Assembly (NCBI GenBank): GCA_964514135.1
Contig: CAZEPL010000003.1
Location: 6,549 to 70,548, forward strand
Direction of reading: 5' to 3'
Length of the DNA: 64,000 bases
Origin: an uncultured Spirochaetaceae bacterium
GTDB taxonomy: Bacteria > Spirochaetota > Spirochaetia > SZUA-6 > RPPD01
A program made the position numbers and the translations under genes. The number at the start of each line of letters is the position of its first letter. Positions within the stretch are counted from its first letter, which is position 1. Of this stretch, positions 5,046 to 63,400 are shown in pieces. The notes beneath the pieces were generated by a model that saw nothing but the letters and a program-made list of their open reading frames with translations, did no database searches and was not told where the DNA came from.

Positions 5046-5444
5046 TTAATACACATCACTTCCCTGTGGTCCCAGACCCGATTCAATAAAATATTCCCCA
5101 AGAATAAAATTAATACACGTATTTTTATAAGCCGTTCCTTTATATATATCGCTTATTTTAATTTTGATATTTTCTACTTCCTGATTAAATTCAATAACCT
5201 GTATCCCTGCCGTATCACTTAATTCAAATTCTACTAATTTATCATTTGTATCAGCATCAAAGATTATAATTGACTTTAGCCGAGAATTTTTTAAAAAAAG
5301 ATCCGGTTTATTGTAACAAATATAGCCATTTGAAATAATTAATCTATTAATAGCGGCCTCAAATTTTATGTATATATATTCATTAATCGCATAGCGAGCG
5401 CCGGCGTTTGCCCACGATTTTTTTAACTCCATGTAAATACCCAT
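5046..5444 (-). CDS. Hypothetical protein
   Basis: The ORF is 132 aa. The in-frame upstream stretch reaches about 5580 without a canonical start codon. Confidence 0.3.
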   Translation of the reverse strand: MGIYMELKKSWANAGARYAINEYIYIKFEAAINRLIISNGYICYNKPDLFLKNSRLKSIIIFDADTNDKLVEFELSDTAGIQVIEFNQEVENIKIKISDIYKGTAYKNTCINFILGEYFIESGLGPQGSDVY

Positions 5445-6341: not shown

Positions 6342-6489
6342 ATATACCTCCTAAAGTAGAATGAATTATCTATTTAAGGATTATGATATGAATTGAAACT
6401 AGAGTTGTTATAAAAAGGTAAAAAAATGTAAAAAGGTGTAAATAGCTACATGATTGGATTATTTTACATATTATCTACTCATTTGCTTT

Positions 6490-6760
6490 GTATTGGATAT
6501 TGGCAGATAAATAAAGCTGCCTTCTTCATCATACCCGCCTTCTAATAGTATTCCATGCCAGTGAGGATGAAATCGAGCGAAGTCACCTGCTGTATGATAG
6601 GACAGGATCAAACCAGTTTTGATATTAAGCACAGAATATCATAGCTAAATAGATTCTGTCCGGTGAGATAAAGGAAGGCAATACCGTGGTTATAGAGAGA
6701 GTAAAAGATAATTTCGCCGTGAAAAAGGGGTAGTACATGATTTCACCCTTGGTATATATA
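6490..6760 (-). mobile_element. Degenerate IS91-family (Y2 HUH rolling-circle transposase) gene remnant
   Basis: The minus-strand translation LSYHTAGDFARFHPHWHGILLEGGYDEEGSF matches the IS91 HUH motif region (HTWG..L..HPHxHxLV.GGG). The reading is broken by a frameshift and there is no intact ORF. Confidence 0.45.
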
Positions 6761-6767
6761 CTAATTA

Positions 6768-7677
6768 TTACTTTAATCTTATCAAATCGTTTTTGGATAC
6801 TCTAAAAAGGTCTCCCTGTTCATTAGAAATGAGTAGTTCTTGATCGTTTAAAAAGCAGATCGCTTCGCATTGTTTGGCATCTATGGGTAACCACAGAACT
6901 GTACCATAAAAAAAATTATCTTCTGTATAATCCTCAAATACCCAAATGGCAGTATAAGTAAGAATTGCCAAGGCTTGGCCTGATAATAGAGCATCAGCTG
7001 ACGTTACTTGTTCATCGCTATTAAACAAAGCTATTAACTCGGGAATATTACACTCATTTTGTTTTGCTGTTAAAGCGGTAGAGTTTAGTATATTTATCGC
7101 CCAGGTGTTTCGTGAGTAGATAGAGTTTGCCTTGTGTAAAAAAGATTGCTTCGCAATCAAAGTTTCTCTTGTTAAGAGGGGGAGGAAACTCATTTTGGTC
7201 TGGATATTTAAAATTATACTTAAAAATCTCTTCTACTACTGTGATCTGATCTGGATCAACTTCCGGTACAACATATATGCAGAGATCCTGACGACTATTG
7301 TCGTTATTTCCACAGTCACCAATTATCAGATTATTGTTACCATCAATTGAAATATCTTCCCAGTCTATGTTAACTGCATGGTCAATCTTTATACCCTGGT
7401 TTATATCGGTGCCAGGTGGGTATTTATCGCTACCATCAAGCTGCACGGCAAATATTCTGGCAATGTCTCCGGAGTCATTATGGGTCCAGATAACATTACT
7501 ATATTGGCGGCTCTTAATAAGTCCTGAGGATTCACTAATGAGATCATTGGCGAATTGGGCAATTGGTTCTAATATAACAGATGTCTCCGCTGGAATATCT
7601 ACACTTTTTAAAGGGGGCAGTGAAACACAACTCTGGAATAAAAAAAATAATAAAGCATATATGTAATATTTTTTCAT
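6768..7677 (-). pseudogene. Lipoprotein, beta-propeller-like, split across two overlapping frames (frameshift)
   Basis: ORFs 7054..7677 and 6768..7193 overlap by 140 nt in different frames. The upstream one has the lipoprotein signal peptide (LFFLFQSCVS), and the downstream one has no credible independent start. Confidence 0.45.
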
Positions 7678-8004
7678 AAATCTATTCGCATCCGATAATA
7701 GATAAAATATAGCCTTAAGTCAAGGAATATTCTTAAGCTACCTATTAAATGATAGCTAAATTTATAATTTCGCTTAAGGAATTTTTTGGAAAAAAGTGGG
7801 AAAATCGAAAAAATTGTGCAAGCATTAGCAAACTAAAAGTAAAAAATCTCTCTTTTAAAAGTCATCAATTTAGACTTTCCAGATCAAAGGTTGGAGGCGA
7901 GCGCCCGTTTTTAACTAAATGACACAATATTCAGGATCTTAAATCTACCTTGTGTAATGTTCTGTTTTTCACTATCATATCCCCGTGTCTAGTGCGCATT
8001 ATTA

Positions 8005-11293: not shown

Positions 11294-11322
11294 GGATGTG
11301 ATAGCATTAACTTCATTTCAAT

Positions 11323-11781
11323 TTAATACATCATATTGATTACAATATGCTGCTCTAATTCCGAAACCACAATTGAGGCATCTTTAAAGGAGGGGGCACT
11401 CATAAAGCCCATGGCGTCATTGGAAAAACCATATCCTTCGAGTGGTATTCCAAAAAGGCCTTTGTCCATAGAGCCGTTGCTGTTTTCATCATGTAATAAA
11501 CACACGGCATAGGTGCCTGACTGGGCAAGATTAAAAACAGCCTGCGCTTTTCCATTCTTGATGGAGACTGCCGCTTTATCAATGGCTTTTTCGGCGTCTT
11601 CCGGGAAACCCGCTTCGCTGTTATACAGGGCAAGCAATACTTTTCCCTTGTCATTTCGCAGCCCCTTTATGGTTACATGCAGAGTGCTTGCTTCCTGCTC
11701 AGCCCAAAGCGTAACTAAAAAACATATGGTTATCAGTAAAATTATTATTCGTTTCACTATTACTCCTATCAGCGGTTTCAT
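11323..11781 (-). CDS. DUF2141 family protein (copy A)
   Basis: A signal peptide is followed by LHVTIKGLRNDKGKVLLALYNSEAGFPED...GIPLEGYGFSN, which is the DUF2141 signature. Confidence 0.7.
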   Translation of the reverse strand: MKPLIGVIVKRIIILLITICFLVTLWAEQEASTLHVTIKGLRNDKGKVLLALYNSEAGFPEDAEKAIDKAAVSIKNGKAQAVFNLAQSGTYAVCLLHDENSNGSMDKGLFGIPLEGYGFSNDAMGFMSAPSFKDASIVVSELEQHIVINMMY

Positions 11782-12160
11782 TTATTATTAAACACCGCTC
11801 TCTTTCTAAAATGTCACCTGTGCTCTTTTTTTTATTATACTTCATAATTATAACACTAGTTTACTTTGAATTCTTTCTTATCTTTACAGCACAGTATCTG
11901 AATAAGATCTCTGCTGCACTTGGTAACCGCCGGTACTGCTCCGCCGGGCTGCACCCATTGGCCGGTCATATAAAAACCTTTTAGCCCCGGCAGGGTCCTC
12001 TCATACTGCTTGCCGAAGTTTTCCGGTGTAAACAACCAACCCTCAAATGATCCCTGCCGGTTACCTGTATACTTATAGGTGGTCATGGGAGTTGCGATAT
12101 CTACCACTTCAATTTTAGCTTTAATCCCCGGATAACGCGTTTCCAGATAATCCACAATAT
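11323..12160 (-). repeat. Direct repeat copy A (~830 bp; DUF2141 gene plus oxidoreductase 3' fragment)
   Basis: This segment aligns base-for-base with 14789-15540 at roughly 90% identity by eye. Confidence 0.8.
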
Positions 12161-12700
12161 CTCTTTTTATACTCTCTTTTTCCTTATTATACGCAATGCG
12201 GTTTTTTGATAATTTTTACCAAAAAGAAAATGAAGTCGGGAATAACACAGTAACTAAACTCTTGCTACCGGTTTGTAAAGAAGCATAAAAAGCATAGTTC
12301 TTTACCCACAATCCATCAACATTAAAACTGCCGATTTTAATTGACTTAACAAGGAGGTGAATATCCGTATGCGTAACGGCCTTATATTCAGATCTCAGCC
12401 CCAAAGAAATCATCATCAAGGATCACCACAACTTTGCATTTTTGTAACGCTTGTTTATTTTTTTATTTATAAACTTCCCATCCAGCATATTATAAATAGT
12501 TGCATAACCGTCCGCAGCGCTTATTATAAGGTCCGCATGAGCCTGTATTCCGTTCTCCAGCTCAATTCCCACTGCCCGCCTTTTCTTGAGTAATATCTTA
12601 TTTACTTTACAGTTATAGTTAATTTTTGCTCCCATAGCTTTACATTTCGACTCTAATACCCTGGCAAGAAGTCTCGCCCAAGCCTTGCGGCTTGCCCGTT
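11856..12700 (-). pseudogene. Decayed phytoene-desaturase-family (CrtI-like) FAD oxidoreductase
   Basis: Three consecutive minus-strand ORF pieces are frameshifted: 12423-12700 (AMGAKINYNCKVNKILLKKRRAVGIELENG...ADLIISAADG), 12216-12419 and 11856-12155 (C-terminal YTGN...PGGAVP). The N-terminal Rossmann part is missing. Confidence 0.55.
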
Positions 12701-13016
12701 GTGTCACTATAACGGATTCACCCCCTGCTTCCGCCTGAGCGCGCGCGGCGCTACCGCCCCATCCGTACCACTTCTCCGCAGCTCTCAACTTGAGTGCCGG
12801 ACGCTTCTTCCACGTGCAGCGGCTTCTTGAGGAATAGACGCCATACCGCCGCACCACGTGCTTGCCCTTTGGCGGAATATGCAGCGTAAGCTGCGCGATG
12901 AAATCCAAGCCGTAAAAGTACCTGTCCTCGCCCCGAAGAAGTAGCAAATCACTTTTAAAGGATACCGTAAAACTGTCAAGGGCAAAAAATGAGGGTGAAG
13001 CTTTAAGGCAAATCAC
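12700..13016 (-). mobile_element. IS91-family transposase C-terminal remnant fused in-frame to the oxidoreductase fragment
   Basis: HIPPKGKHVVRRYGVYSSRSRC matches the IS91 C-terminal motif (HVLPKGFHRIRHYG). The DNA is locally GC-rich, around 60%, against an AT-rich background. Confidence 0.55.
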
Positions 13017-13063
13017 GAACTATTAACTGTGCGATAAAAGCACTAATTTTATTTTTTAGAAGT

Positions 13064-14698
13064 TTAAAATAATTTTCTATTTAATTTTTCCGCTATGGTT
13101 TTTCCTGTTAAGAATGCATTCGGCATACCTCCGCCGTATACAGTCTGATGACCTATGAAATAAAGACTTTTTATTTTATCATAATAATCAAAATATTTAC
13201 CAGGTAAAGTACCTTTTACAAAAGTTTTTTCTTTGTCCCATGTGAATCCGCAAGACGAACCGTCTGTATTCCCTGTATATTTTTCAATTGTAAATGGAGT
13301 GCCTAATTCGCATACTTCTATCTTTGATCTATTTTTGATTTCCGGAATTAATTTTTCCAGCACATCTAAAACTTGTTTTGTTATCATTTTTTTTATTTTT
13401 TCATACTCTTCGGTTTTATTTCCATTTTTAATTCCCCAGTTGTTATTCCAACCTTTTGGAGGAGAAGGCATTAGGATTAAAATATTGCTTTTATTTTCTG
13501 GAGCATGCCCGGGATTAATAAGGCATGAAGAAAACAATCCTAAACCTATATTTTTAAAATAATTTTTATCATTCAGCCTACTGGAATTTTTTATCATATA
13601 TTGAGAATAATATAAATGCTTGGCACCGTTAAAATATTTTCTAATTTTAATTCTTGAAACATTTAATCCTAAGTATAACGGAATATATGTTTCAGACATT
13701 TCCTGATTTTTTATTTTATCTAAAAATACTTCATCAATATATTCATCTCCTATAAGATTTAAAAAAACTTTTTTTAAATCCATAGCAGTTATTATATTTT
13801 TACCGTACAATTTTTTTATATTTGCTTTCTTAATTAATTCAACTCCAACAGCTTTATCATTTTCAATAATAATTTTTTTAACTTTCACAGAAGTTAATAA
13901 TTCTCCGCCAAAAGATAAATATTTTTCCTTCAATTTATTTGCTAATCCCTGGAATCCATTATATGGGTAATTTTCCATTTCAATTAAGCTTACCCATTCT
14001 GCAATAAAATAAAATAGATCAACGCCCTTATACCCCCAGTTTGAAAAAAAATCATAAGCTTCTCCATTTTCGTCCAGGTATTTTTTTAATACATCGACTG
14101 CTTTATATTTCTTGAGTTCCTTCATGACTTTCATACAGTTTTTCGGCATGATTTTTCCATAATCCATGAATTTCCTTATTTTTTTTAAACCTTTATATGA
14201 AAAAGGATTGGGGATTTTTGAAATCGCTGAATAAACATTTATTCCTTCTTCTATATGCTTATAAAAAGCAAGTATCTGATTTTTTTCTCTAACAAATAAA
14301 TCCGAAATATCTTCAAAGAATTCTTTTACAGTTCGTGGAGAAAAGTTAAAATCCTTAAAACTGAATGAACTCGAGTATTGCTTAAAATTAACTTCAGCAA
14401 TTAAATCCAATTCTTCCATAAAACCCTGGATAAAAGGAACCCCGACACTTATGACTCCGGAATCAAAAAAATAACCTTTCCTGGTGAACCCGCTTGCATG
14501 ACCACCTACTACATTGTGTTGTTCTAATATTATTACTTTTTTCTTTTTTTTAGCTAGAATGATAGCAGCGGTCAGTCCGCTTATCCCTCCGCCAATAATT
14601 AATGCTTCATATGACATATTTATCTCCTTTATAATAATTAAGATAGTTCCAGAATCACTTAGCTGTGTGATTCTTCCAAATAAACAATGCTCAATCAA
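13064..14698 (-). CDS. NAD(P)/FAD-dependent oxidoreductase, phytoene desaturase (CrtI/CrtD)-like family
   Basis: The N-terminal Rossmann motif is IIGGGISGLTAAIIL...ILEQHNVVGGHA. The C-terminus resembles the CrtI family. The DNA is very AT-rich. Confidence 0.75.
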   Translation of the reverse strand: MIEHCLFGRITQLSDSGTILIIIKEINMSYEALIIGGGISGLTAAIILAKKKKKVIILEQHNVVGGHASGFTRKGYFFDSGVISVGVPFIQGFMEELDLIAEVNFKQYSSSFSFKDFNFSPRTVKEFFEDISDLFVREKNQILAFYKHIEEGINVYSAISKIPNPFSYKGLKKIRKFMDYGKIMPKNCMKVMKELKKYKAVDVLKKYLDENGEAYDFFSNWGYKGVDLFYFIAEWVSLIEMENYPYNGFQGLANKLKEKYLSFGGELLTSVKVKKIIIENDKAVGVELIKKANIKKLYGKNIITAMDLKKVFLNLIGDEYIDEVFLDKIKNQEMSETYIPLYLGLNVSRIKIRKYFNGAKHLYYSQYMIKNSSRLNDKNYFKNIGLGLFSSCLINPGHAPENKSNILILMPSPPKGWNNNWGIKNGNKTEEYEKIKKMITKQVLDVLEKLIPEIKNRSKIEVCELGTPFTIEKYTGNTDGSSCGFTWDKEKTFVKGTLPGKYFDYYDKIKSLYFIGHQTVYGGGMPNAFLTGKTIAEKLNRKLF

Positions 14699-14788
14699 TA
14701 TTTTAACATTTTTATATAATGCATTATATGCTCAACACCTTTTTTATATACACCCGCATCTTAAGAGAGCGTGTTTAAAAATATTTTT

Positions 14789-15247
14789 TCAATATACTAT
14801 ATTAATTGTGATATAATAATCTGATCCTATAACCTCTATCGAGGCATCTTTAAAGGGGGGGGCGCTCATAAATCCTTTGGCATCATTAGAGAACCCATAC
14901 CCTTCCAGTGGAATACCAAAAAGGCCTTTATCCATGGAGCCGTTATTGTTTTCATCGTGTACTAAACACACCGCATAGGTACTGGAATGGTCAAGATTAA
15001 AAACAGCCTGCGCTTTGCCATTCTTGATGGACACTACCGCCGTATCAACGGCTTTTTCGGCGTCTTCCGGGAAACCCGCTTCACTGTTATACAGGGCAAG
15101 CAGTACTTTTCCCTTATCATTTCGCAGCCCCTCTATGGCTACATGTAGAGTGCATTCTTGTTTCTCAGCCCAAAGCGAGACTAAAAAACATATGGTTATC
15201 AGTAAAATTATTATTCGTTTCATTATTACTCCTTTTTGCGGTTTCAT
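14789..15247 (-). CDS. DUF2141 family protein (copy B, paralog)
   Basis: It is about 85% identical to copy A at protein level by eye. A C8/G8 homopolymer lies in the codons for APPF. Confidence 0.7.
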   Translation of the reverse strand: MKPQKGVIMKRIIILLITICFLVSLWAEKQECTLHVAIEGLRNDKGKVLLALYNSEAGFPEDAEKAVDTAVVSIKNGKAQAVFNLDHSSTYAVCLVHDENNNGSMDKGLFGIPLEGYGFSNDAKGFMSAPPFKDASIEVIGSDYYITINIVY

Positions 15248-15360
15248 TTATAAATAAAGCACCGCCTTATTTTCTAAAATGTCACCCGTTTTAATTTTTT
15301 TTATTATCCCTCATAATCATAATACTATTTTATTCTGAATTCTTTTTTATCTTTATGGCA

Positions 15361-15540
15361 CAGTAATTGAATAAGATCTCTGCTGCACTTGGCAACCGCC
15401 GGCACACCTCCCCCCGGCTGCACCCACTGTCCGGTCATATAAAAATCTTTTAGTCCCGGCAATCTTTTTTCATACTGCTTACCAAAGTTTTCCGGTGTAA
15501 ACAGCCAGCCCTCAAACGATCCCTGCCGGTTCTTTTATTA
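15361..15540 (-). pseudogene. CrtI-like oxidoreductase C-terminal remnant (second copy)
   Basis: The DNA is near-identical to 11880-12060 and encodes the ...PGGVPAVA...ILFNYCAIK-like C-terminal end. It is truncated upstream. Confidence 0.5.
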
Positions 15541-35964: not shown

Positions 35965-36028
35965 GAATGATTACAGTGATCAACCGTGTATAGTGTATTT
36001 CGGTGAACTATCCCAAGATATATTAAGT

Positions 36029-36150
36029 GAGGAAATTGCAAAACTCAAAATATATTAACTTAGTAAAATACTTATTCTCTATACCATAATAAGTTAGCAA
36101 TTTCCATTTTAGGAGCTTCTTGCAAAAATAACATTTTTGCAAGAAGCTCA
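36029..36150 (+). repeat. MITE-like element copy A: 9-bp TIRs (GGAAATTGC...GCAATTTCC) plus an adjacent 16-bp stem hairpin
   Basis: It aligns with 39764-39840 and with the reverse complement of 61095-61214. Confidence 0.75.
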
Positions 36151-36186
36151 GAGAATAAGAAATAAACACTCACTTAAACCGGCGAA

Positions 36187-39624: not shown

Positions 39625-39763
39625 TTTTTTGGTAGCACATTAAGATTTTTCTTGATCTTTCTTATTCATGTATTGACTAGGATTTTAAGTCTATCTATCA
39701 TTTTAAATATAATGGAGGTGTTATAATGAAAAACCCTGAAAAAAAATGTATTCTTATTTTAGC

Positions 39764-39840
39764 GAGGAAATTGCAAAACTCAAAATATATTAAGTTAGTA
39801 AAATACTTATTCTTTATACCATAATAATTTAGCAATTTCC
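39764..39840 (+). repeat. MITE-like element copy B (core with both TIRs, no hairpin)
   Basis: It aligns with the 36029-36105 core. Confidence 0.7.
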
Positions 39841-53052: not shown

Positions 53053-54894
53053 ATGATGGGCACATATCTTACCATAGCTACTATAATCTGCATATACTTT
53101 TTACTGCTTTCTCTAAAAAACAAAGAAACCCTGAAGACTCTTACCTATTTACCGGATATAAAAGCGACACCTAAAGTCTCCGTACTTATCCCGGCGCGTG
53201 ATGAAGAGATAAATATTAACGAATGCCTTGATTCTCTGCTTGATCAGGACTACCCCAATTATGAAATTCTTGTAATCGATGATAATTCCGGCGACCGCAC
53301 CTGGGAGATACTCAAACAGTATGCAAAGAAAAATAAGAAGATTAAAGTATATAAGGGCAAACCGCTGCCGGAGGGCTGGGTGGGAAAACAATACGCCTGC
53401 CAGCAGTTAATAGAATCGGCAGACGGCGAATATCTGATGTTTACCGATGCGGATACCATTCATACTTCAAAAAGCATATCCTGGGCCATAACCAATATAT
53501 TACATCATAAAGCGGACTTTATGTCGGCCTTTTTGCACCACCTTATCGTTTCACTGGGTGAAGCGCTTATCGTTCCGGCGATATATATTATGACCACCAT
53601 CCTTATGCCGCTATGGAAAATTCCGCAGCAAGGAAATCCCTTTTTTTCCTTTGCCATCGGTCAGTTTATGATCTGCCGTAAAGAACCTCTCCTGGCCATC
53701 GGTGGTTATAATTCATTCAAAGACTCTCTGGTAGAAGATATGTCTCTGGCCAGGGCCATGAAAGAACACGGTTACAAAACAATCTTTATTGACGGTAAAA
53801 ATTACATTCACTGCAGAATGTATCATTCTTTTAAAAGTGCCTTTAAAGGACTTGTCAAAAACATGTTCGGAGCCCTGCATCAGAGCATTCTGTTTCTGGC
53901 AGTGCTCTTCCTGGTGGTTGCCGCGGTGATCGAAATTCCCGTGCTCAACCTTATCCAGCAGTGTTATTCGGGGGGCGAAAACCTTGTTTTGTCCATAATA
54001 CCCGTTAGTATGTTCAGCGGTATCTGGTTTATCGTATTGCGCGACAGAAAGGTATCACTTTCCATAACCCTGTCGTATCCCATACTCTTTTTTATGGTAA
54101 TGGTCATAGCCGTTACCTCCACCATAAAAACCGGATTCCTGGGGGGAGTGGAGTGGAAAGGGCGTCTGGTTCGTTGTAATTTTAGGAATATTAACCGGTC
54201 CACTCAGTTTAAGCCCAAGATCACTCGAATCAACGGCAGATACCTCTACCCGCTTTGCAGTGGGTATGCCAAATTTATTTACTGGCTCACCTTCTTACCG
54301 GTAATTCTCTTTAACATTCTCATCTTCCGGCTGCGTATAAAGGGGCGTAAGCACTTGAGGGGTATGGATCAAGGCGGGTTCTATATCTCAAACCACACTC
54401 TCTATCTGGACCCGGGGATTATTGCCAATACAATCGCACCGCACTGTACCTACTTTACCGCCATGGAACAGACCTTCGATATGCCCTTCGTGGGATATTA
54501 TATCAGACTGCTGGGTGCTTTTCCCGTCTCAGAAAAACTGCCCTTTGCCAGTCTTGTCAGGGTAGTGAAAAAAATTACCGCTGAAAAGAAATTTATCCAC
54601 TTTTTTCCCGAGGGAGATTTAATCCGTATGAGTCATACTATGGCCCCCTTCAGACAGGGTGTTTTTTATTTGGCTTATCTGCTTGATAAACCCATTATCC
54701 CGATTGTGATTAATCCCATACGAAAAAAAATATTCGGTAAAACGATCAATAAATTTTTTATGCGGGTGGAAGCCACCATATGCAAACCCATCTATCCTCA
54801 CTCCTTTAAAAACAAGGAAAAAAAGAAAGCGGAGATTATTCAAGAAATGACTCAGCATACCCATGCGCTCATGTCGGCTGTATTAAAACGTTAA
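53053..54894 (+). CDS. Fusion: GT2 glycosyltransferase (N-terminus) + PlsC-like lysophospholipid acyltransferase (C-terminus), with TM segments between
   Basis: The N-terminal region SVLIPARDEE...ILVIDDNSGDRT carries a DxD. The C-terminal region NHTLYLD (HX4D) is followed by FPEG. Confidence 0.65.
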   Translation: MMGTYLTIATIICIYFLLLSLKNKETLKTLTYLPDIKATPKVSVLIPARDEEININECLDSLLDQDYPNYEILVIDDNSGDRTWEILKQYAKKNKKIKVYKGKPLPEGWVGKQYACQQLIESADGEYLMFTDADTIHTSKSISWAITNILHHKADFMSAFLHHLIVSLGEALIVPAIYIMTTILMPLWKIPQQGNPFFSFAIGQFMICRKEPLLAIGGYNSFKDSLVEDMSLARAMKEHGYKTIFIDGKNYIHCRMYHSFKSAFKGLVKNMFGALHQSILFLAVLFLVVAAVIEIPVLNLIQQCYSGGENLVLSIIPVSMFSGIWFIVLRDRKVSLSITLSYPILFFMVMVIAVTSTIKTGFLGGVEWKGRLVRCNFRNINRSTQFKPKITRINGRYLYPLCSGYAKFIYWLTFLPVILFNILIFRLRIKGRKHLRGMDQGGFYISNHTLYLDPGIIANTIAPHCTYFTAMEQTFDMPFVGYYIRLLGAFPVSEKLPFASLVRVVKKITAEKKFIHFFPEGDLIRMSHTMAPFRQGVFYLAYLLDKPIIPIVINPIRKKIFGKTINKFFMRVEATICKPIYPHSFKNKEKKKAEIIQEMTQHTHALMSAVLKR

Positions 54895-54974
54895 ATAGTG
54901 CTACGAAGCTTGTTTTTATGTATTGTATATTTTCTTCGAATATATACACTTATCTCAAAATAGATTTATAAAGC

Positions 54975-55200
54975 GTAAAAATCTTTAGCTCAATATATAG
55001 CAAGGTGTCCCATATCTCAGGAGAAAATTGGATATGAACCCTTTCATGGAAAGGATTTTGGAGCACTCCCCACATGCTGTTAGGTTAGCATCTTCCGGAT
55101 GGGAAAATAAGCTAAAAGCAACCTGTGCTCGATTAATCAAGAAGGTCTATGGCACTGATCATTTGGTTTGACCAAGCTGTGGCTCTGAATTGAAGAATAA
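54975..55200 (+). mobile_element. IS91-family remnant fragment, sharing ~90 bp with 59130-59215
   Basis: The direct repeat is ATCTTTAGCTCAATATATAGCAA...ATGAACCCTTTCATGGAAAGGATTTT. Copy 2 is contiguous with a HUH transposase fragment. Confidence 0.35.
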
Positions 55201-55264
55201 TTCCTCCGCAAGTTGTTATCTTTCCTTCATATAATAATACTCAATAAAAATCATGGATTTACTA

Positions 55265-57418
55265 TTACCCCAAACCTAATAAGCTTCCTCCCTGATAAAC
55301 AATTAAAGCCATAATATATGCTAATGCAGTTGTATATATCATTTGGAACAGAACTTCTTTTAAACTTTTTGTCTCTTTATAAAACACTACCATTGCTGCA
55401 ATACAGGGAAAGTAAAGCAGAACAAAAATCATTAAAGAAAATGCTATTAAAGGAGAATATGCTATATCATTTCGTAATTTATCCCTTAATGTTTCTGATT
55501 CTTCATCAGCTTCTCCTACACTATAAACTGTGCCAAGTGTTGAAACTATTACTTCTTTGGCTGCAAATCCGGCAAATAGGCCTATCCCTAATCTCCAGTC
55601 AAACCCAAGAGGTTTAATTACAGGCTCTATTGCTTTTCCAATCCTTCCTGCAAAACTATATGACAAATCTTCTGTTGCCCTTTCATTTTCAAAATCTTCA
55701 ATCTTATTTTCTTTAATTTCTTCTATTTGATTACTTGTCTCTATTCCATTTATAAGCTTATAATAATCTTTTGAATATGAAGTAACTTTTGGAAAACTCA
55801 TTAATACCCACATAATAATTGAAACTGCAAGTATTATTGTACCGGCCTTTTTTAAATATAACTTTCCCTTTTCCCACATATGAATTAGAATACCTTTAAT
55901 AGTAGGAAGATGATAAGGCGGTAGTTCCATTACAAAAGGAGCAGACTCACCACGAAATCTAACCTTTGAAAATATTTTTGCCATAGCAACTGCAATAACT
56001 ATCCCTAAGATATATATTATAAATATAATATTCCCTGCAGCTTCTTTAGGAAAGAAAGCACCGGCAAAAAGTACATATACAGGCAATCTTGCTCCACAGC
56101 TCATAAATGTATTCACATGCATTGTAACCAGACGATCTCTTTTGCTTTCAAGTATTCGGCATCCCATGTATGCAGGTATTGTACAACCAAATCCTATAAG
56201 CATTGGAATAAATGATTTACCATGCAGTCCAAATTTATGCATGATCCTGTCCATAATAAACGCTGCTCTCGACATATATCCTGAATCTTCTAAGATAGCA
56301 ATTGCAATAAATAAAATTAGTATATTGGGAAGAAATACTAATACACCACCAACACCTCCTATTATCCCATCAACAATTAATGAATTGATTATGCCTTCAG
56401 GTATTACATTTCCTATAAGTTCTCCAAACCATCCAAAAAAGCTTTCTATCCACTCCATCGGTTTTTCTGCTAAAGTAAAAGTCATTTTAAATATAAGCCA
56501 CATGAAAAAAGCAAAGATGGGTAGTCCTAATATTCTATTGGTTAATATCTTATCTATTTTATCTGAAACATCTAATTTATGTCTTTCAAGCTGCCTGGCA
56601 GATTCTTTTACTACTCCTTTAATAAATCCATATCTCATGTCAACAATACGGCCTTCTACATCCTCACCAAAAATCATCTCCAAATGTTTTGTGCTTTCTT
56701 CGATTTGATATATTGCTTCTTGTTCAATAGAAGAGCCTTTGATATGCTCTAATTCTTCTTTGTCGTTTTCTAATAGCTTTATGCTAATATATCTGGCAGA
56801 TACTTTTTGCGTAAGACTTTTATCTTTTTTAATTATTTCTAACAATTTTTCTAATTCATTCTCTATTTCCTTTCCAAAATTTACTTGCACAGGCTTTATC
56901 TTTGACTCCCCTGTAGCAACCGTTATTATTTTCTCAAATAAAGCTTCAATTCCCTCTTTTTTATGGCCTACCGTAAAAACTATTTCACAGCCTATTAATC
57001 TAGAGAACAGATTTTCATCCAATCTTAAACCTTTTTTCTTGGCAATATCACTCATATTAAGACATAATATGAATGGTATACCCAATTCTGCCAATTGAGT
57101 AGCCAAATATAGATTTCTTTGAAGATTTGAAGAATCAATTATATCAACAACAACATCTGGTCTTTCTTCTATGAGAAATTTTCTTGCTACTACTTCATCA
57201 AGAGAATATGCTGTAAGGCTGTAAGTACCCGGAAGATCTACCACCTTTATTTTGTAATCCTTATAATTACATTTTCCTTCTTTTTTCTCCACAGTTACAC
57301 CTGGATAATTTCCTACATGCTGTCTCGCTCCGGTAAGAGCATTAAAAATAGTTGTTTTCCCTGAATTGGGATTACCAGCCAACGCTATTGTAATCTCGTT
57401 TTTATTGTTCTGACCCAA
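55265..57418 (-). CDS. feoB: Ferrous iron transporter B
   Basis: The G-domain is IALAGNPNSGKTTIFNALTG, followed by a polytopic membrane domain. The DNA is very AT-rich. Confidence 0.9.
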   Translation of the reverse strand: MGQNNKNEITIALAGNPNSGKTTIFNALTGARQHVGNYPGVTVEKKEGKCNYKDYKIKVVDLPGTYSLTAYSLDEVVARKFLIEERPDVVVDIIDSSNLQRNLYLATQLAELGIPFILCLNMSDIAKKKGLRLDENLFSRLIGCEIVFTVGHKKEGIEALFEKIITVATGESKIKPVQVNFGKEIENELEKLLEIIKKDKSLTQKVSARYISIKLLENDKEELEHIKGSSIEQEAIYQIEESTKHLEMIFGEDVEGRIVDMRYGFIKGVVKESARQLERHKLDVSDKIDKILTNRILGLPIFAFFMWLIFKMTFTLAEKPMEWIESFFGWFGELIGNVIPEGIINSLIVDGIIGGVGGVLVFLPNILILFIAIAILEDSGYMSRAAFIMDRIMHKFGLHGKSFIPMLIGFGCTIPAYMGCRILESKRDRLVTMHVNTFMSCGARLPVYVLFAGAFFPKEAAGNIIFIIYILGIVIAVAMAKIFSKVRFRGESAPFVMELPPYHLPTIKGILIHMWEKGKLYLKKAGTIILAVSIIMWVLMSFPKVTSYSKDYYKLINGIETSNQIEEIKENKIEDFENERATEDLSYSFAGRIGKAIEPVIKPLGFDWRLGIGLFAGFAAKEVIVSTLGTVYSVGEADEESETLRDKLRNDIAYSPLIAFSLMIFVLLYFPCIAAMVVFYKETKSLKEVLFQMIYTTALAYIMALIVYQGGSLLGLG

Positions 57419-57429
57419 AATGTCCTCCT

Positions 57430-57663
57430 TTAAATAACAATTATTTTGTGAGCCATACCATGACCAATGGCAATTTTAGAACCCTTTATTTTTATCATTA
57501 CTGGTCCCGGATGGCCCGAACTTATAAGTTCAATTTTTTCTCCTGGAATAAAACCCATCTCTTTCATCCTGTTGACAAACCCATACCCTCCATGTATTTC
57601 AACAATAGTTAGATTTTGCCCTTGGTGCATCATATATAGAGGGGCACTGTGTTTTTCTGTCAA
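57430..57663 (-). CDS. feoA: FeoA-family protein
   Basis: It is a small SH3-like FeoA protein (GEKIELIS...PVMIKIKGSKIAI). Confidence 0.7.
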   Translation of the reverse strand: MTEKHSAPLYMMHQGQNLTIVEIHGGYGFVNRMKEMGFIPGEKIELISSGHPGPVMIKIKGSKIAIGHGMAHKIIVI

Positions 57664-57896
57664 TCTTTAACCTCCACTATAATATTGATTGCTTCTTCTT
57701 TTCTTAATGAGAGATGATAGTCCTGGATAAGTAAATCAATCGGATCGCCTAATGGTGCTTTCTTCTTAACTTCAATCTCTGAACCAGCAATTACACCCAT
57801 ATCCATAATTCTTCTCTTTAAAATTGGCTTTCCCATAATGCTTTTAACCCTTCCTTTTTCACCTGGCTTAAGCTGGCTTAATTTCTTTTCTATCAT
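57660..57896 (-). CDS. feoA: FeoA-family protein
   Basis: LKPGEKGRVKSI...GDPIDLLIQDYHLSLRKEEA is FeoA-like. It overlaps its neighbour by 4 nt. Confidence 0.7.
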   Translation of the reverse strand: MIEKKLSQLKPGEKGRVKSIMGKPILKRRIMDMGVIAGSEIEVKKKAPLGDPIDLLIQDYHLSLRKEEAINIIVEVKD

Positions 57897-57941
57897 AATT
57901 ATCTACCTCCGGTATTATTAATGACTATTTGCAATTCTTAG

Positions 57942-58673
57942 CTAATTCACAACTTCAATAATTATTAATTCAGCTTCCTTTTTTCTTAAAGAAAGATGGT
58001 AGCCTTTAATATAAATATCAATTGGATCTCCAAGAGGGGCTACCTTTTCTACCATAATAACTTCATTAGGAATTAACCCCATACTTAAAAGCCTTCGCTT
58101 TATTTCTCTATCTCCTTCAATTCTTTTGATAATTCCTTTTTCGTTTTTTTCTAAGTTTGATAATTTTTTAATATTAGTTACTTCTAATTTCTTATCTATA
58201 TTTTCTTTTAAATATTTTGAAAAATTATCTATAAACTTACTATCAGCATCTATCTGCTTAATATATTTCATAAAACATACAATATTATTATATGTTTCTT
58301 CATGAATATAATGTTCTATATTACATGCGTCTTTCTTAGATATTTCTTCATCCGTTAGTAATATTTTTGAAAAAAAAGTAACAAGATTTTGGTGCTTTTC
58401 ATATATTCTTCTTGCTACGATTGTACCGGTTTTGGTTAATTCAATATGTTCAAATTTTTCATGTACAATTAGGTTCTTTTTTAATAAAACTTTTATTGCA
58501 TTGTTTATTGACGACACCTTATAGTTAAAAAATTCCATTAAATCTTTTACCCTAACGATTTTTTTCTTTAAGCTAATTATCCAGATAGCTTCCAGATAAT
58601 CTTCCATACTTTGTGATAATTCATACATATAGTCTCTCCTATAAAATATAGACTTACCTATATTTAATAGCAA
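57942..58673 (-). CDS. DtxR/MntR-family metal-dependent regulator with a C-terminal FeoA domain
   Basis: The N-terminal DtxR HTH is SQSMEDYLEAIW. The C-terminal FeoA-like domain is GLIPNEVIMVEKVAPLGDPIDIYIKGYHLSLRKKEA. Confidence 0.7.
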   Translation of the reverse strand: MLLNIGKSIFYRRDYMYELSQSMEDYLEAIWIISLKKKIVRVKDLMEFFNYKVSSINNAIKVLLKKNLIVHEKFEHIELTKTGTIVARRIYEKHQNLVTFFSKILLTDEEISKKDACNIEHYIHEETYNNIVCFMKYIKQIDADSKFIDNFSKYLKENIDKKLEVTNIKKLSNLEKNEKGIIKRIEGDREIKRRLLSMGLIPNEVIMVEKVAPLGDPIDIYIKGYHLSLRKKEAELIIIEVVN

Positions 58674-58899
58674 TTTCTATATTAGTCAAGTTAAATGCAC
58701 ACTTTTTTCTGCACCTGAAAGAATAAAATCTTTTCCATAGACTTCCTTAAACTTTTTTCTAGCAAGATTACCTGAACAATGATAAGGAGACACTTTCTCA
58801 ACACCCTAATCCTTTAATACATTGACAATTTCCATTATTTAACCTATATTCATCCAGCACAAATGAAAGCCTCCTAATATTAAATAAACATCTTTATAT

Positions 58900-59250
58900 T
58901 TTTATAGAATTTTTAACGATGTTTTTCGCATGAAAATAGTTACAGGTCTTGTACTCTCCTATCAGACAGCAGGAGATTTCGCCAGGTGGAATCCACATTA
59001 TCATTGACTTCTTCTAGAAGGTAGTTTTGATGCGGAAGGCAATTTTGAAGAACTGATAAATGAGAATTTTGCTAATAAATTACTATCCTGGAAGAATTCA
59101 GGATTTTCAATTGATAACTCTGTAAGAATCTTTAGCTCAATATATAGCAATGCGTCCCATATCTCTGGAGAAGATTAGATATGAACCCTTTCATGGAAAG
59201 GATTTTAGAGCACTCACCTTTGGGAACTATGCGCAATTAACTCTAAGGAG
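58900..59250 (+). mobile_element. IS91-family transposase remnant (HUH region) with an in-frame stop
   Basis: The sequence LSYQTAGDFARWNPHYH*LLLEGSFDAEGNF matches the IS91 HUH block. It is followed by the ~90-bp segment shared with 54975-55065. Confidence 0.5.
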
Positions 59251-59378
59251 AGATGATTCCTTATATTTTTTCTACCGTTTATAGACGTTCTGGAATTTTT
59301 GCCGTATATTTCTATTTTTCTTTGTAAAAATCCTTACATAAAATTATAAGTTTAGCTATCATTGCATTGTAGTACTAC

Positions 59379-60035
59379 TTAATCGGTACACAGGGATATA
59401 AGCTCTTTAATCGTGGGCGGCGTCCCCGGACCGCCGTGGACCGCTTGATAACGAATATATCTGCCGTCTGCCAGCGCAAACCAGTAATCCGCATGCCAGA
59501 AGTTACCGGCAAATCCCAACGCCTTTATTCTTATTCGTACCGCCTTGATTGAACGGCCTGAAATCTTTACTTTTTCTATGTTCATTTTAAGCGCTTCAAA
59601 CTCAAACAGAGCCAGGTCGTTGGGAGAGATTATCCAAAACTCCACCCGCTGTTTCATAGAAAGAGCAAACTTCTGTAAAGTAACCTCCGGGTACTGATAC
59701 CAGGGTCGGGAGTCTATAGTATATTCTTTGCTCACCGGCTGGCGCTTGAATGTACCTTGGAGCTTAATCGTATTTCCGTTGCGCTGCGCTTTAAAACTGT
59801 TGCCCTCCGCTGCCTGGGTGACTTCCCACACAAGCTGATTAGAGCTGCTGTCATAACTGTTCAGGCTGATTGGCGTTTTCAACACAAATCCCGCAGAGGT
59901 ATGTTCAAAAACAAGCACTTCGTATGCTATATTTTGGCCGGTGCTTACTTTGAATGTATACGATTCCTGGGCAGATACGGTATTGGCCATGGCTATTAAT
60001 ATAAGTAAAAGTGTAAATAACTCAAGATATTTCAT
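59379..60035 (-). CDS. Hypothetical secreted protein
   Basis: It has a signal peptide. The 5' end overlaps the upstream gene by 4 nt. Confidence 0.4.
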   Translation of the reverse strand: MKYLELFTLLLILIAMANTVSAQESYTFKVSTGQNIAYEVLVFEHTSAGFVLKTPISLNSYDSSSNQLVWEVTQAAEGNSFKAQRNGNTIKLQGTFKRQPVSKEYTIDSRPWYQYPEVTLQKFALSMKQRVEFWIISPNDLALFEFEALKMNIEKVKISGRSIKAVRIRIKALGFAGNFWHADYWFALADGRYIRYQAVHGGPGTPPTIKELISLCTD

Positions 60036-61045
60036 TTTTGTATCGGGTAATCCGGATTGGAAAGGTCATACTCGAAATTACCAAAATCAAGAGCATAGCC
60101 TGACAGTGTTTTACCATCAGCCGTAAGCTTAAATTTGCTCAAACTTCCCGATTGGCTATCTGCATGTTCGGCTGATGCGAATTTTGGAATAAGCTTTTCA
60201 GAGAGCTTATTATTGGAGACATTATATATATGAAAATGATAATAGCCTTTAATAACAACATATTTTAAATTTCTTTCATTATGGTGTAATACAATCTCAT
60301 ATGGAAAATCGGAAGAAACATTAACGGGAAGGAGTATTTTATTTATTACAGAAAAACCATTGCCATATTCTATTGTGACAAGCTGCCTTAAGCAAGGTAG
60401 ATTATTTTCATTATAGGCAGCAGAATCGGCTGCTATGCGAATGATAGTTTTTATTTCAGGAAAGACAACTTCCGAGCCAAGCCTGTACTTTGCTATTTTA
60501 AATCCTTTCTCAATAACAGGTAATACTATTGTTTGACCGGGCTTCAAAGGAACAGCAGGATTATGGTTATTAAGTTTTTGGATAATATCAATATACTCGT
60601 CTATTAAATAAGGATCAAAATCCGAAAAGGAAGCGGACATTAATTCCTGTACGATTTCGTGTAATGATGGGATACTCTTTCCCGTCGCATTCCGGGGCAC
60701 CGTATATTCCTGTGTTTTAATAATAACAGTGCATTCACCGCTTAAATCATACCTGTACCAACCTTCATCAGTTTTTACACCGCCTGTAATACCTCCTTTA
60801 AAGTCTACTTTTATTCCTACAGGAAAAATATGCAGAGCATAGGTTGAAAGCATTTCTCCATAAAACACACGAAAATTACCATAAACCGGCACAAAACGCA
60901 TAATACCTTGATCATTCCCTAAAATGCCTTTCTCACCGTTATCCGTTAATACAATTGTTCCTTGAAAAGCGACTGCCCCGCCGCTAAAGGCGTGTAAAGT
61001 GCTTAATGTAATAAAAATGACCACAGCAATAATTTTTTTAATCAT
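60032..61045 (-). CDS. Hypothetical secreted protein
   Basis: It has a signal peptide. No family is recognised. Confidence 0.4.
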   Translation of the reverse strand: MIKKIIAVVIFITLSTLHAFSGGAVAFQGTIVLTDNGEKGILGNDQGIMRFVPVYGNFRVFYGEMLSTYALHIFPVGIKVDFKGGITGGVKTDEGWYRYDLSGECTVIIKTQEYTVPRNATGKSIPSLHEIVQELMSASFSDFDPYLIDEYIDIIQKLNNHNPAVPLKPGQTIVLPVIEKGFKIAKYRLGSEVVFPEIKTIIRIAADSAAYNENNLPCLRQLVTIEYGNGFSVINKILLPVNVSSDFPYEIVLHHNERNLKYVVIKGYYHFHIYNVSNNKLSEKLIPKFASAEHADSQSGSLSKFKLTADGKTLSGYALDFGNFEYDLSNPDYPIQK

Positions 61046-61094
61046 TTCGGACTCCCTCTTTGTTTTACTTTAATACATACGATTTTTAACCGGT

Positions 61095-61214
61095 ATATTA
61101 AATGAGTTTCTTGCAAAAATAACATTTTTGCAAGAAACTCCTAAAATGGAAATTGCTAAATTATTATGGTATAAAGAATTAGTATTTTACTAACTTAATA
61201 TATTTTGAGTTTTG
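61095..61214 (-). repeat. MITE-like element copy C (inverted orientation; core plus hairpin)
   Basis: Its reverse complement matches 36029-36150 at about 90% by eye. Confidence 0.75.
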
Positions 61215-61326
61215 CAATTTCCTCAAATAATAAGAATTTACCATTTACTCCCGGGCTGCTCATGATTTGGCCGAATCCGCCACAATCCATTTTATCGCAA
61301 ATATAAAAATATTCCGGTCTTTTTCT

Positions 61327-62847
61327 TTAATTATTGATATGTTCTTTTATATATTTACCTCTTGTTAATCCTTTTTTTACCCTTTTTATTCCCTCTCGGA
61401 TTTGTTCAAGGCTAAGATTCCCATAACCTAAAATAAGTTTATTGTTGTTCCGGTTCTTTACGATTGCATGATCCTCTACTCTATAAACACGTACACCTTG
61501 GTCAAGGAGTGTGTTTACAAGCTTGTCCGTAAAAACAATATCTTTAAACCCGGCAACAATATACAAACCCGTAGAATCACCGCTTATAGTTACATTATCA
61601 TTAAACTCCTCATGCAATATATTGATTATCCATTTTCTTTTTTCTTTATACAGTCTTTTCATTTTGTTGACATGTCGATCAAAATGTCCCTGTAATATAA
61701 AATCGGATAAGGCAACCTGGGGCAGGGAAGATGTAATAAGGCCACATTCCTGTTTTACTCTCACACACGGCTTTACCAGTTGTTCCGGAAGAACCATATA
61801 ACCAAGACGAAGCGAAGGATAGATTGATTCACTGAAGGTCCCAATATGGATAACTATTTCGGGATCAAGCAGATGCAGGGAGCTGATGGGAGAACCGGTA
61901 TGTCTGAACTCGCTGTCATAATCATTTTCTACTATAAAGGTTTTAAGTTTCCGTGCTATTTCTATAAGCCTTACCCTACGCTGAATGGACAGCACACTTC
62001 CGGTGGGAAACTGATGCGAAGGTGTTACCATAATAAAATGATCTTTGACAGCTTCCGGAATAAGCTTTACCCGCATACCTTTTTCATCAACGGGAATTGG
62101 ATGGTATTGAATGGCAAGACTTGAAAATATTTTTTGGATTCCGTCATACACGGGATCCTCGATTATTACACCGCTGAAATCCGTTTTAAACAGCCTGCCT
62201 ATAATCAAGAATCCTTCCAGCGATCCGGACAAGACAATAATCTGATCGGGATGACAACTTATGCCTTTTTTTTTAAACAGAAAATCCGCCAATGTTGCCC
62301 TGAAGGCAAAAACTCCCTGTGCGTTACCGTAATCCAATAGATGATCGGGCATATCAAGAAATGAGTACTTTAAGAATTTTGACCATAGCTTCCTGGGTAC
62401 TCTTTTGAAATCAGGAAGACCGCTGTTAAAATCTATGATATGGGTCTGGCTTTTTCTCTCAATACTGTATGTATTTGCCTTTTTTATGGCCGTTTTATAA
62501 TCAACAAGATGAGTGTCATCCGCCACATATGTACCCGATCCCCTGCTGCTTGAAAGATAACCTTCAGCAGTTAGCTGTTCAAATACTTCAATTATTATAT
62601 TTCTGGATACTTCTAATTCTAGTGCCATAGTTCTGGTCGATGGCAGTTTTTCTCCGCTTTTTAATTCATTCTTTAATATTTTATCCCTAACTTGAGTAAA
62701 TATCTGCTCAGTCAATGTAGTCTTTTTAGATCTGTCTATATGAATCCAAAACATTGAAGACACCTCAAAAGTGGTACTATAAAAAAAGTTGAAATGTGGC
62801 TCTTTTCCATACCTCTTTTTATTACTATATATAACATTAAAAATCAA
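61327..62847 (-). CDS. MocR/GabR-family regulator (GntR HTH + class I/II aminotransferase domain)
   Basis: The HTH is LPSTRTMALELEVSRNIIIEVFEQL. The body is PLP-aminotransferase-like. The true start may be an internal Met. Confidence 0.75.
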   Translation of the reverse strand: MIFNVIYSNKKRYGKEPHFNFFYSTTFEVSSMFWIHIDRSKKTTLTEQIFTQVRDKILKNELKSGEKLPSTRTMALELEVSRNIIIEVFEQLTAEGYLSSSRGSGTYVADDTHLVDYKTAIKKANTYSIERKSQTHIIDFNSGLPDFKRVPRKLWSKFLKYSFLDMPDHLLDYGNAQGVFAFRATLADFLFKKKGISCHPDQIIVLSGSLEGFLIIGRLFKTDFSGVIIEDPVYDGIQKIFSSLAIQYHPIPVDEKGMRVKLIPEAVKDHFIMVTPSHQFPTGSVLSIQRRVRLIEIARKLKTFIVENDYDSEFRHTGSPISSLHLLDPEIVIHIGTFSESIYPSLRLGYMVLPEQLVKPCVRVKQECGLITSSLPQVALSDFILQGHFDRHVNKMKRLYKEKRKWIINILHEEFNDNVTISGDSTGLYIVAGFKDIVFTDKLVNTLLDQGVRVYRVEDHAIVKNRNNNKLILGYGNLSLEQIREGIKRVKKGLTRGKYIKEHINN

Positions 62848-62887
62848 GTTATGCGTAATACAATCTTTGTGTATTTAGGAGCAGACA

Positions 62888-63400
62888 ATGAAAATCGAAA
62901 ATATACATTATTCTGATCACGCAAAGGAATTAATTAATTCTTTTCCTAAAGGTATTTTATTACTAACAAAATATAAAGAAAACATTAATATAATGACAAT
63001 TGGATGGTGTCTCTTAGGTTATATGTGGAACAGACCAATCTTTCAAACTATCATTCGTACCTCACGGTTTACTTTTAATCTTATAGGAAAAAGTAAAAAT
63101 TTTTCTGTTAATGTCCCTTTAAAAGATAAAATGAAAGAAGAAATATTATTTTGTGGTACAAATTCAGGAATAGATATTAACAAAATTAAGAAATGCCGTT
63201 TTACTATCTCTAATTCACAATTAATTGATTCTCCTATCATATCAAATTGCGATTTATTTTTAGAATGTAAAGTAATAGCAAAATTACCAATTGAGAATAT
63301 TAATGGAGATAATTCACATGAAAATCTTAGCGATAATCATTTCCATATGATGTATTATGGAGAAATAGTATTAAGTTACATTAAAGGAGGAAACAGATGA
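62888..63400 (+). CDS. Flavin reductase-like (FMN-binding split-barrel) protein
   Basis: LLLTKYKENINIMTIGWCLLG is flavin-reductase-like. It lies divergent from the MocR regulator. Confidence 0.5.
   Translation: MKIENIHYSDHAKELINSFPKGILLLTKYKENINIMTIGWCLLGYMWNRPIFQTIIRTSRFTFNLIGKSKNFSVNVPLKDKMKEEILFCGTNSGIDINKIKKCRFTISNSQLIDSPIISNCDLFLECKVIAKLPIENINGDNSHENLSDNHFHMMYYGEIVLSYIKGGNR

Follow-up and report, generated by a model that had tools for sequence, protein, structure and literature searches.

The feo block and its genes

In a 64-kb stretch of contig CAZEPL010000003.1 from an uncultured Spirochaetaceae bacterium (the window, meaning all 64,000 nucleotides analysed), a block of 4,484 bp (54895-59378; hereafter the feo block) occupies the spacer between two converging genes. 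It holds an intact operon of four genes, dtxR-feoA-feoA-feoB, all on the minus strand and situated between two copies of a direct repeat. The gene to its left encodes a GT2 glycosyltransferase fused to an acyltransferase (53053-54894, plus strand; Pfam PF00535 and PF01553), and the gene to its right is orf218 (59379-60035, minus strand), whose product matches no Pfam family. The stop codons of both flanking genes are conserved in relatives.

The first gene of the operon (57942-58628) encodes a DtxR/MntR-family metal-dependent repressor of 228 amino acids with the domains Fe_dep_repress (PF01325), Fe_dep_repr_C (PF02742) and FeoA (PF04023). In this order they form a winged-helix DNA-binding domain, a metal-binding and dimerisation domain, and a C-terminal SH3-like domain. 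The open reading frame (ORF) reaches a TTG at 58673; the likelier start is the ATG at 58628, which gene callers used in other assemblies. It is followed by the first feoA (57660-57896; PF04023, E 7e-22), the second feoA (57430-57663; PF04023, E 2.8e-18) and feoB (55265-57418), which encodes 717 amino acids. An operon of this composition had been proposed in a first-pass annotation of the window, and the Pfam searches confirmed it and added the strand. The operon resembles known Feo systems in its two FeoA genes and its full-length FeoB, which has all the Pfam domains (G-domain, cytosolic helical domain, two Gate domains and FeoB_C) and scores 656 bits against the TIGR00437 equivalog. It differs from them in lacking FeoC and in having a regulator of the DtxR family, not of the Fur type, in front. 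Scans for sigma-70 promoters and terminators gave no more hits than in shuffled sequences.

The repeat copies R1 (54975-55071) and R2 (59122-59218), both read on the plus strand, are 97 nt long and 92% identical, with a start-to-start spacing of 4147 nt. A direct repeat of about 90 bp bracketing the feo genes had been claimed, and this was borne out. A 23-mer and a 29-mer from the repeat each occurred exactly twice in the window, with none expected in 100 shuffles.

The feo genes differ in composition from their surroundings. Their GC content is 0.25-0.37 and their GC at third codon positions (GC3) 0.20-0.30, compared with 0.403 ± 0.050 and 0.406 ± 0.076, respectively, in the other 44 ORFs of the window. 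The GC3 of the block is thus about 1.3-2.7 standard deviations below that of the other ORFs, and it is further below that of the two flanking genes, which have a GC content of 0.43-0.46.

The insertion site in relatives and in other assemblies

Relatives were sought by scanning species-representative genomes with the GT2-acyltransferase protein. Two were found, a Spirochaetales metagenome-assembled genome (MAG; L003) with 79% amino acid identity in this protein and a Spirochaetaceae MAG (L004) with 74%. Both keep the upstream gene order DegP-DegP-HK-RR-GT2 (HK, histidine kinase; RR, response regulator), and in both a converging homologue of orf218 (77% amino acid identity in L003, 59% in L004) adjoins the GT2 gene directly, with 13-17 bp from stop to stop. 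Since this spacer measures 4,484 bp in the window, the block is an insertion; the two stop codons are unchanged. The empty site anticipated in the first-pass annotation was thereby located. This site and the atypical composition identify the feo block as a horizontally acquired genomic islet. We have little doubt that a foreign block was inserted here together with the remnants of an IS91-family insertion sequence (IS) described below.

The opposite history, in which the ancestor already had the feo operon here and the relatives lost it by a precise deletion, gains a little from the small number of relatives, as the two might form a clade that excludes the lineage of the window. It is nevertheless very unlikely. 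Both relatives have a tight spacer of 13-17 bp with intact stop codons, the block ends in an IS terminus, its GC3 is low compared with the other ORFs, and the closest FeoB lies in an unrelated context.

Synteny with the relatives stops at orf218, and therefore the feo block lies at the edge of a larger variable region. The genes beyond orf218 (60032-63400) comprise orf337, a GntR-aminotransferase fusion and a flavin reductase with a GC content of 0.255. Neither L003 nor L004 has counterparts of them within 10 kb downstream of its orf218 homologue, and their AT content exceeds that of the syntenic genes.

An assembly artefact would have joined the low-GC contig of another organism, or a 4,147-bp circle, to the host contig through the shared repeat. 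The extent of one Logan contig (L001) is suggestive of this, as it covers exactly 55031-59206 and has the same 29-mer at its start and its end; a second Logan contig (L002) runs from the GT2 gene through R1 and stops at 55060. However, the last base of L002, which follows the 29-mer, is specific to R1 and continues into L001. In addition, JGI contigs from two other samples (L129 and L131, 99.98% and 99.64% identical to the window) have the order orf337-orf218-R2-dtxR-feoA-feoA-feoB. Because these two contigs cross the right junction from orf218 through R2 into feoB, we rejected the artefact, which we regard as scarcely credible; moreover, both transposase pieces are pseudogenes, and the unit contains nothing capable of replicating it. 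The left junction is supported by the window and L002 only, the right junction by L129 and L131 as well.

Short-read contigs end inside the repeats at several positions (L001 at 55031 and 59206, L002 at 55060, L132 at 59177 and L130 at 59131). Contigs of four independent short-read assemblies break in this way, yet the longest exact stretch shared by R1 and R2 is only 29 nt. Possible causes of the breaks are further copies of the element in the community and alternative junctions, such as a circle, a tandem or a solo repeat.

IS91-family remnants and the proposed route of capture

Each repeat copy is part of a decayed transposase gene on the plus strand. On the right, R2 is contiguous with a middle transposase remnant (58888-59121) that encodes ...TGLVLSYQTAGDFARWNPHYH*LLLEG..., in agreement with the first-pass report of an HUH transposase fragment next to the second repeat. 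The whole right piece (58888-59218) translates as ...TGLVLSYQTAGDFARWNPHYH*LLLEGSFDAEGNF..NKLLSWKNSGFSIDNSVRI / ESLAQYIAMRPISLEKIRYEPFHGK.... Its HUH motif, NPHYH at about 58990, aligns with HPHWH or NPHFH of relatives and is directly followed by a stop codon. This piece has a private deletion of 76 nt, and its Zn-finger third, its C-terminus and the IS 5' end are missing. On the left, R1 encodes VKI / SLAQYIARCPISQEKIGYEPFHGK / EHSP and leads into a C-terminal remnant (55072-55200) with the translation HAVRLASSGWENKLK..ATCARLIKKVYGTDHLV*PSCGSELK, which was recognised by tblastn with the family proteins P0007, P0032 and P0040 and by alignments. The whole left piece (54975-55200) reads VKI / SLAQYIARCPISQEKIGYEPFHGK.. 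/ ..EHSPHAVRLASSGWENKLK..ATCARLIKKVYGTDHLV*PSCGSELK; it contains an in-frame stop, has nothing left upstream of VRI, and has lost the final ~40 codons together with the IS 3' end.

The right piece matched plasmid genes annotated as IS91 family transposase (tblastn E 3e-13, 33% identity). Alone, it scored 18.3 bits against Pfam Y2_Tnp, under the cut-off of 20.9 bits, and 11.7 bits against NF033538. A conceptual protein in which the two pieces were merged retrieved 112 homologues, mostly with PF04986 (Y2_Tnp) and several from Spirochaetales or Spirochaetota MAGs. A near-intact reference copy of 1,802 bp was delimited by comparing L045 with L046, which are 99.8% identical within the element and have unrelated flanks. 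The copy encodes PF14319 (Zn_Tnp_IS91) and PF04986. The N-terminal Zn-binding domain (PF14319) was found in L045-L048 and not in the window pieces, in which homology begins at 58888. Compared with L045, R1 and R2 have in common a 29-nt deletion just after VRI and a deletion of ~225 nt. The latter removed the Y2 motif, YIRRYGLYASR in L045, from both window copies. As judged from these sequence comparisons, the fragments flanking the feo genes are pieces of IS91-family transposase pseudogenes, remnants rather than functional members, as the first-pass annotation had held for the repeats, and the 97-nt repeat is the portion that both truncated copies retain. The shared deletions mean that both pieces descend from one element that was already defective.

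Other large internal deletions, with loss of the HUH or Y2 regions, were seen in the same transposase family in Spirochaetales MAGs and metagenomes (P0028, P0055 and P0098). Judging from these sequences, copies of this IS in such genomes appear usually to decay by deletion.

The right edge of the block is formed by the conserved 3' terminus of the IS family (59297-59364, plus strand; ...AAATTATAAGTTTAGCTATCATT), which ends 14 bp before the orf218 stop codon. The same terminal block is present at 7748-7805 (minus strand) of the window, behind another C-terminal remnant, and in two places in L037, and in the copy common to L045 and L046 it corresponds to the end ...ATTATAAGTTTAACTATCAAC. In all terminus copies compared, similarity ceases directly after CTATCA(T/A)(T/C). 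As the terminus is conserved and ends at the junction, the insertion is bounded on its right by an authentic IS end. The stretch between R2 and this terminus (59219-59296) had no match in 92 loci with this IS family. The left junction spacer (54895-54974) consists of 80 AT-rich bp with a weak 7-bp hairpin that folds no better than shuffles, and it likewise matched none of the 92 loci. It was considered as the IS 5' terminus and rejected, being unlike both the 5' end in L045/L046 and the 92 loci and having no strong hairpin.

The 1,802-bp copy in L045 and L046 begins with TTATTTTCCCCAAC... and ends with ...TTTAACTATCAAC. It has no terminal inverted repeats, and no target-site duplication was seen in the differing flanks of these two copies. 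At its end upstream of the transposase gene (tnp), L045 has two strong subterminal hairpins (-36 kcal/mol, z -13); no strong hairpin was found at the 3' end in L045 or in the window. In L046 (1840-1866), the last 13 nt of the IS are found again in the flank directly past its 3' end (TTTAACTATCAAC TATTTAACTATCAAC), perhaps a trace left by initiation or termination there.

Transposition of IS91-family elements starts at oriIS, downstream of tnpA, and ends at terIS, upstream of it (PMC13181058). In 1-14% of events termination fails, and DNA adjacent to terIS is co-mobilised (PMC13181058). In the feo block, an authentic IS end is present at the right junction only, and the cargo lies upstream of the right-hand transposase remnant. 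This pattern fits, without proving, one-ended capture of the IS91 type. We therefore hypothesize that a foreign dtxR-feoA-feoA-feoB cassette (about 55258-58880) entered the spirochaete lineage as a single block of 4,484 bp, which would have inserted into the 13-17 bp separating the convergent GT2-acyltransferase gene from orf218. The cassette would have travelled with copies of one IS91-family element that was already internally deleted. As these copies are without the Y2 catalytic tyrosines, a transposase acting in trans would have been needed, presumably supplied by intact copies, which are common in these spirochaetes. Rolling-circle transposition would have started at one end and missed its termination, so that adjacent DNA was carried along. 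On this account the right copy would have kept its 3' terminus at the junction and lost its 5' third, on which upstream side the cargo lies, and the block would run through part of a second copy before ending abruptly on the left without an IS terminus. The IS pieces are now dead, and the operon is intact. As a whole, a foreign cassette with defective IS91-family copies and one-ended capture is the explanation we moderately favour; for the one-ended route taken by itself, the chances are about even.

The likeness to IS91 and ISCR elements extends to the Zn-finger, HUH and Y2 motifs (PF14319 and PF04986) of the intact relatives, to the lack of terminal inverted repeats and target duplication in the 1.8-kb copy, and to the position of the cargo upstream of the transposase gene with one authentic end and copies that presumably depend on a transposase in trans. 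In contrast to those systems, the feo block resides in an uncultured spirochaete and carries a metal-uptake operon instead of resistance or virulence genes; the window copies have neither the Y2 motif nor the Zn-finger, and the mobility is putative.

Several observations weigh against this reading. The target tetranucleotides GTTC and CTTG, which adjoin oriIS in the IS91 family (PMC13181058), are not found beside the 3' terminus; in five copies the bases that follow it are GCAT, TAAT, AAAA, CATA and TATT. The strong hairpins of L045 are upstream of tnp, whereas IS91 and IS801 have two palindromes at oriIS, downstream of tnpA (PMC13181058), so that in this family the origin may lie at either end. 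R1 and R2 are mismatched at 8 of their 97 positions; either their divergence dates back to the donor, or a long time has passed since the event. The scenario also calls for several additional deletions. In the 92 other loci of this IS family, no feo genes were present. A search for the donor lineage gave no candidate; FeoB proteins from named taxa (Zixibacteria, Omnitrophica, Syntrophaceae and others) all have 56-60% identity. Low GC is also not exclusive to the feo block: the ORFs at 62888-63400, 13064-14698 and 5046-5444 are equally or more AT-rich. The contrast in composition described at first is nonetheless genuine.

One-ended rolling-circle transposition, movement of an IS-cargo-IS composite and recombination between IS copies are all possible routes. 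The main rival is recombination: feo genes lying between two direct, defective IS copies would have moved as a composite, or a circle would have integrated at an IS remnant present at the site, with trimming afterwards. The equal orientation of the two pieces and their common deletions agree with this, as does the 8% divergence between R1 and R2, which would fit two older copies. Remnants of the same family at 6453-6635, 7748-7930 and 12651-12962 offer substrates in the window, and the short-read contigs from several samples that break in the repeats would fit alternative junctions. Recombination requires, however, either an IS copy beforehand in exactly the 13-17 bp spacer, which is seen in no relative, or more deletion events, and it leaves unexplained why only the outer right terminus is intact at the junction. 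We consider it rather unlikely. The first-pass annotation had proposed a mobilised cassette and offered both one-ended transposition and recombination; the mobilisation agrees with the insertion, the atypical composition and the IS terminus at the right junction.

A variant, which we consider improbable, is a capture vehicle like those of ISCR elements: a non-autonomous, deleted IS91 derivative, mobilised in trans, would have rolled more than once round a circular donor of IS and feo genes, giving rise to the redundancy of R1 and R2. The 4,147-bp unit might then still excise or duplicate through the repeats, and such ongoing activity is hinted at because the short-read contigs of several samples end exactly in them.

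Other remnants and repeats were observed in the window. Elements of the same transposase family left an HUH piece (6453-6635), an extreme C-terminus (7868-7930) and the conserved 3' terminus mentioned above (7748-7805), all on the minus strand. The remnants at 6453-6635 and 7748-7930 flank two unannotated minus-strand ORFs (7054-7677 and 6768-7193). A second AT-rich insertion lies beside an IS91 remnant at 11322-15531. Two segments of it, 11322-11621 and 11826-12062, have second copies (14788-15087 and 15295-15531) that lie about 3,467 bp further downstream and are 83-86% identical; each set carries a DUF2141 gene and the 3' end of a FAD oxidoreductase gene. Between them are a chimeric ORF (12423-13016), in which the C-terminal half of Y2_Tnp is fused to oxidoreductase sequence, and an intact oxidoreductase paralogue (13064-14698) with a GC content of 0.29. 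A further repeat of ~137 nt occurs at 36021-36157, 39758-39840 and, inverted, 61096-61232, with 90-99% identity between copies. It is intergenic, resembles a miniature inverted-repeat transposable element and contains the perfect palindrome TTCTTGCAAAAATAACATTTTTGCAAGAA; one copy is located between orf337 and the GntR-aminotransferase gene.

Origin, regulation and metal specificity of the cargo

A FeoB identical to that of the window was found only in assemblies of the same organism. The next FeoB, with 87% amino acid identity, is encoded on a 2.6-kb contig with a GC content of 32% (L033), where feoB is followed by a converging MFS gene and no IS is present. DNA similarity between this contig and the window ends 7 bp past the feoB stop codon. 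The closest related feo loci differ in their regulators. L034, on a contig with 57% GC, encodes a FeoB of 70% identity in the order DtxR-FeoA-FeoA-FeoB with a two-domain DtxR, whereas L035 and L036 are Fur-FeoA-FeoB-OprB loci with a FeoB of 64-68% identity. The best 120 FeoB matches included no named spirochaete. A search for a plasmid-borne relative of the island gave only short feoB stretches of 65-73% identity. It is likely that the feo cargo was acquired from outside the host clade.

The regulator had been called an unusual DtxR-FeoA fusion, which did not hold: 119 of its 120 best homologues have the same three domains (Fe_dep_repress, Fe_dep_repr_C and FeoA), and this layout is the classical DtxR arrangement (PMC4805248). 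Against the Protein Data Bank, its two N-terminal domains matched MntR (1on1, E 1e-13) and its C-terminal domain a FeoA protein (2k5l, E 4e-12). The C-terminal FeoA-like domain (57942-58166) is 57% identical to the first FeoA (57660-57896) by BLASTP, which detected no similarity between the two FeoA proteins. The regulator of L034, the nearest related operon, has no such domain. These comparisons suggest that the FeoA domain of the regulator was duplicated from, or exchanged with, the neighbouring feoA.

Metal ligands were read by the criterion that Met/Cys indicates iron, as in DtxR, and Asp/Glu indicates manganese, as in MntR. Aligned to Bacillus subtilis MntR, the ligands of the regulator are Asp, Glu, His, Cys, Glu and His, of which Asp is MntR-like and Cys DtxR-like. 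Porphyromonas gingivalis PgMntR has a hybrid primary site of Asp/Cys/Glu/His and shares an operon with FeoB2, a FeoB-type Mn2+ importer (PMC4805248). By its published description (PMC4805248), PgMntR is similar to the window regulator in its DtxR-family membership, its C-terminal FeoA domain, its location in one operon with a FeoB and its hybrid metal site; it differs in having two FeoA domains instead of one. Because the metal site is hybrid as in PgMntR, the label of iron uptake is an interpretation, and by analogy the cargo may import Mn2+ rather than Fe2+. Of the iron-acquisition cassette named in the first-pass annotation, the Feo genes stand and the metal is insecure.

An imperfect palindrome with 25-nt arms that are 76% complementary (58627-58682) abuts the start codon of the regulator and overlaps a weak promoter-like site on the minus strand. 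Its sequence and position make it a candidate operator. We infer that, at sufficient levels of Fe2+ or Mn2+, the DtxR/MntR-type regulator would repress the operon that encodes it.

The feo block is an ordinary accessory islet of a known class, cargo captured beside an IS91-family element, in an unusual host, and it leaves the current understanding of Feo systems and IS91 elements unchanged. In genome annotation, its feo operon should be treated as accessory and recently acquired, with an uncertain metal specificity. For the spirochaete family of IS91-like elements, a 1.8-kb reference copy and terminal sequences are now given. For the biology of these organisms, the block indicates that IS91-type elements move ordinary metabolic cargo in uncultured sediment spirochaetes, beyond the resistance genes of clinical proteobacteria.

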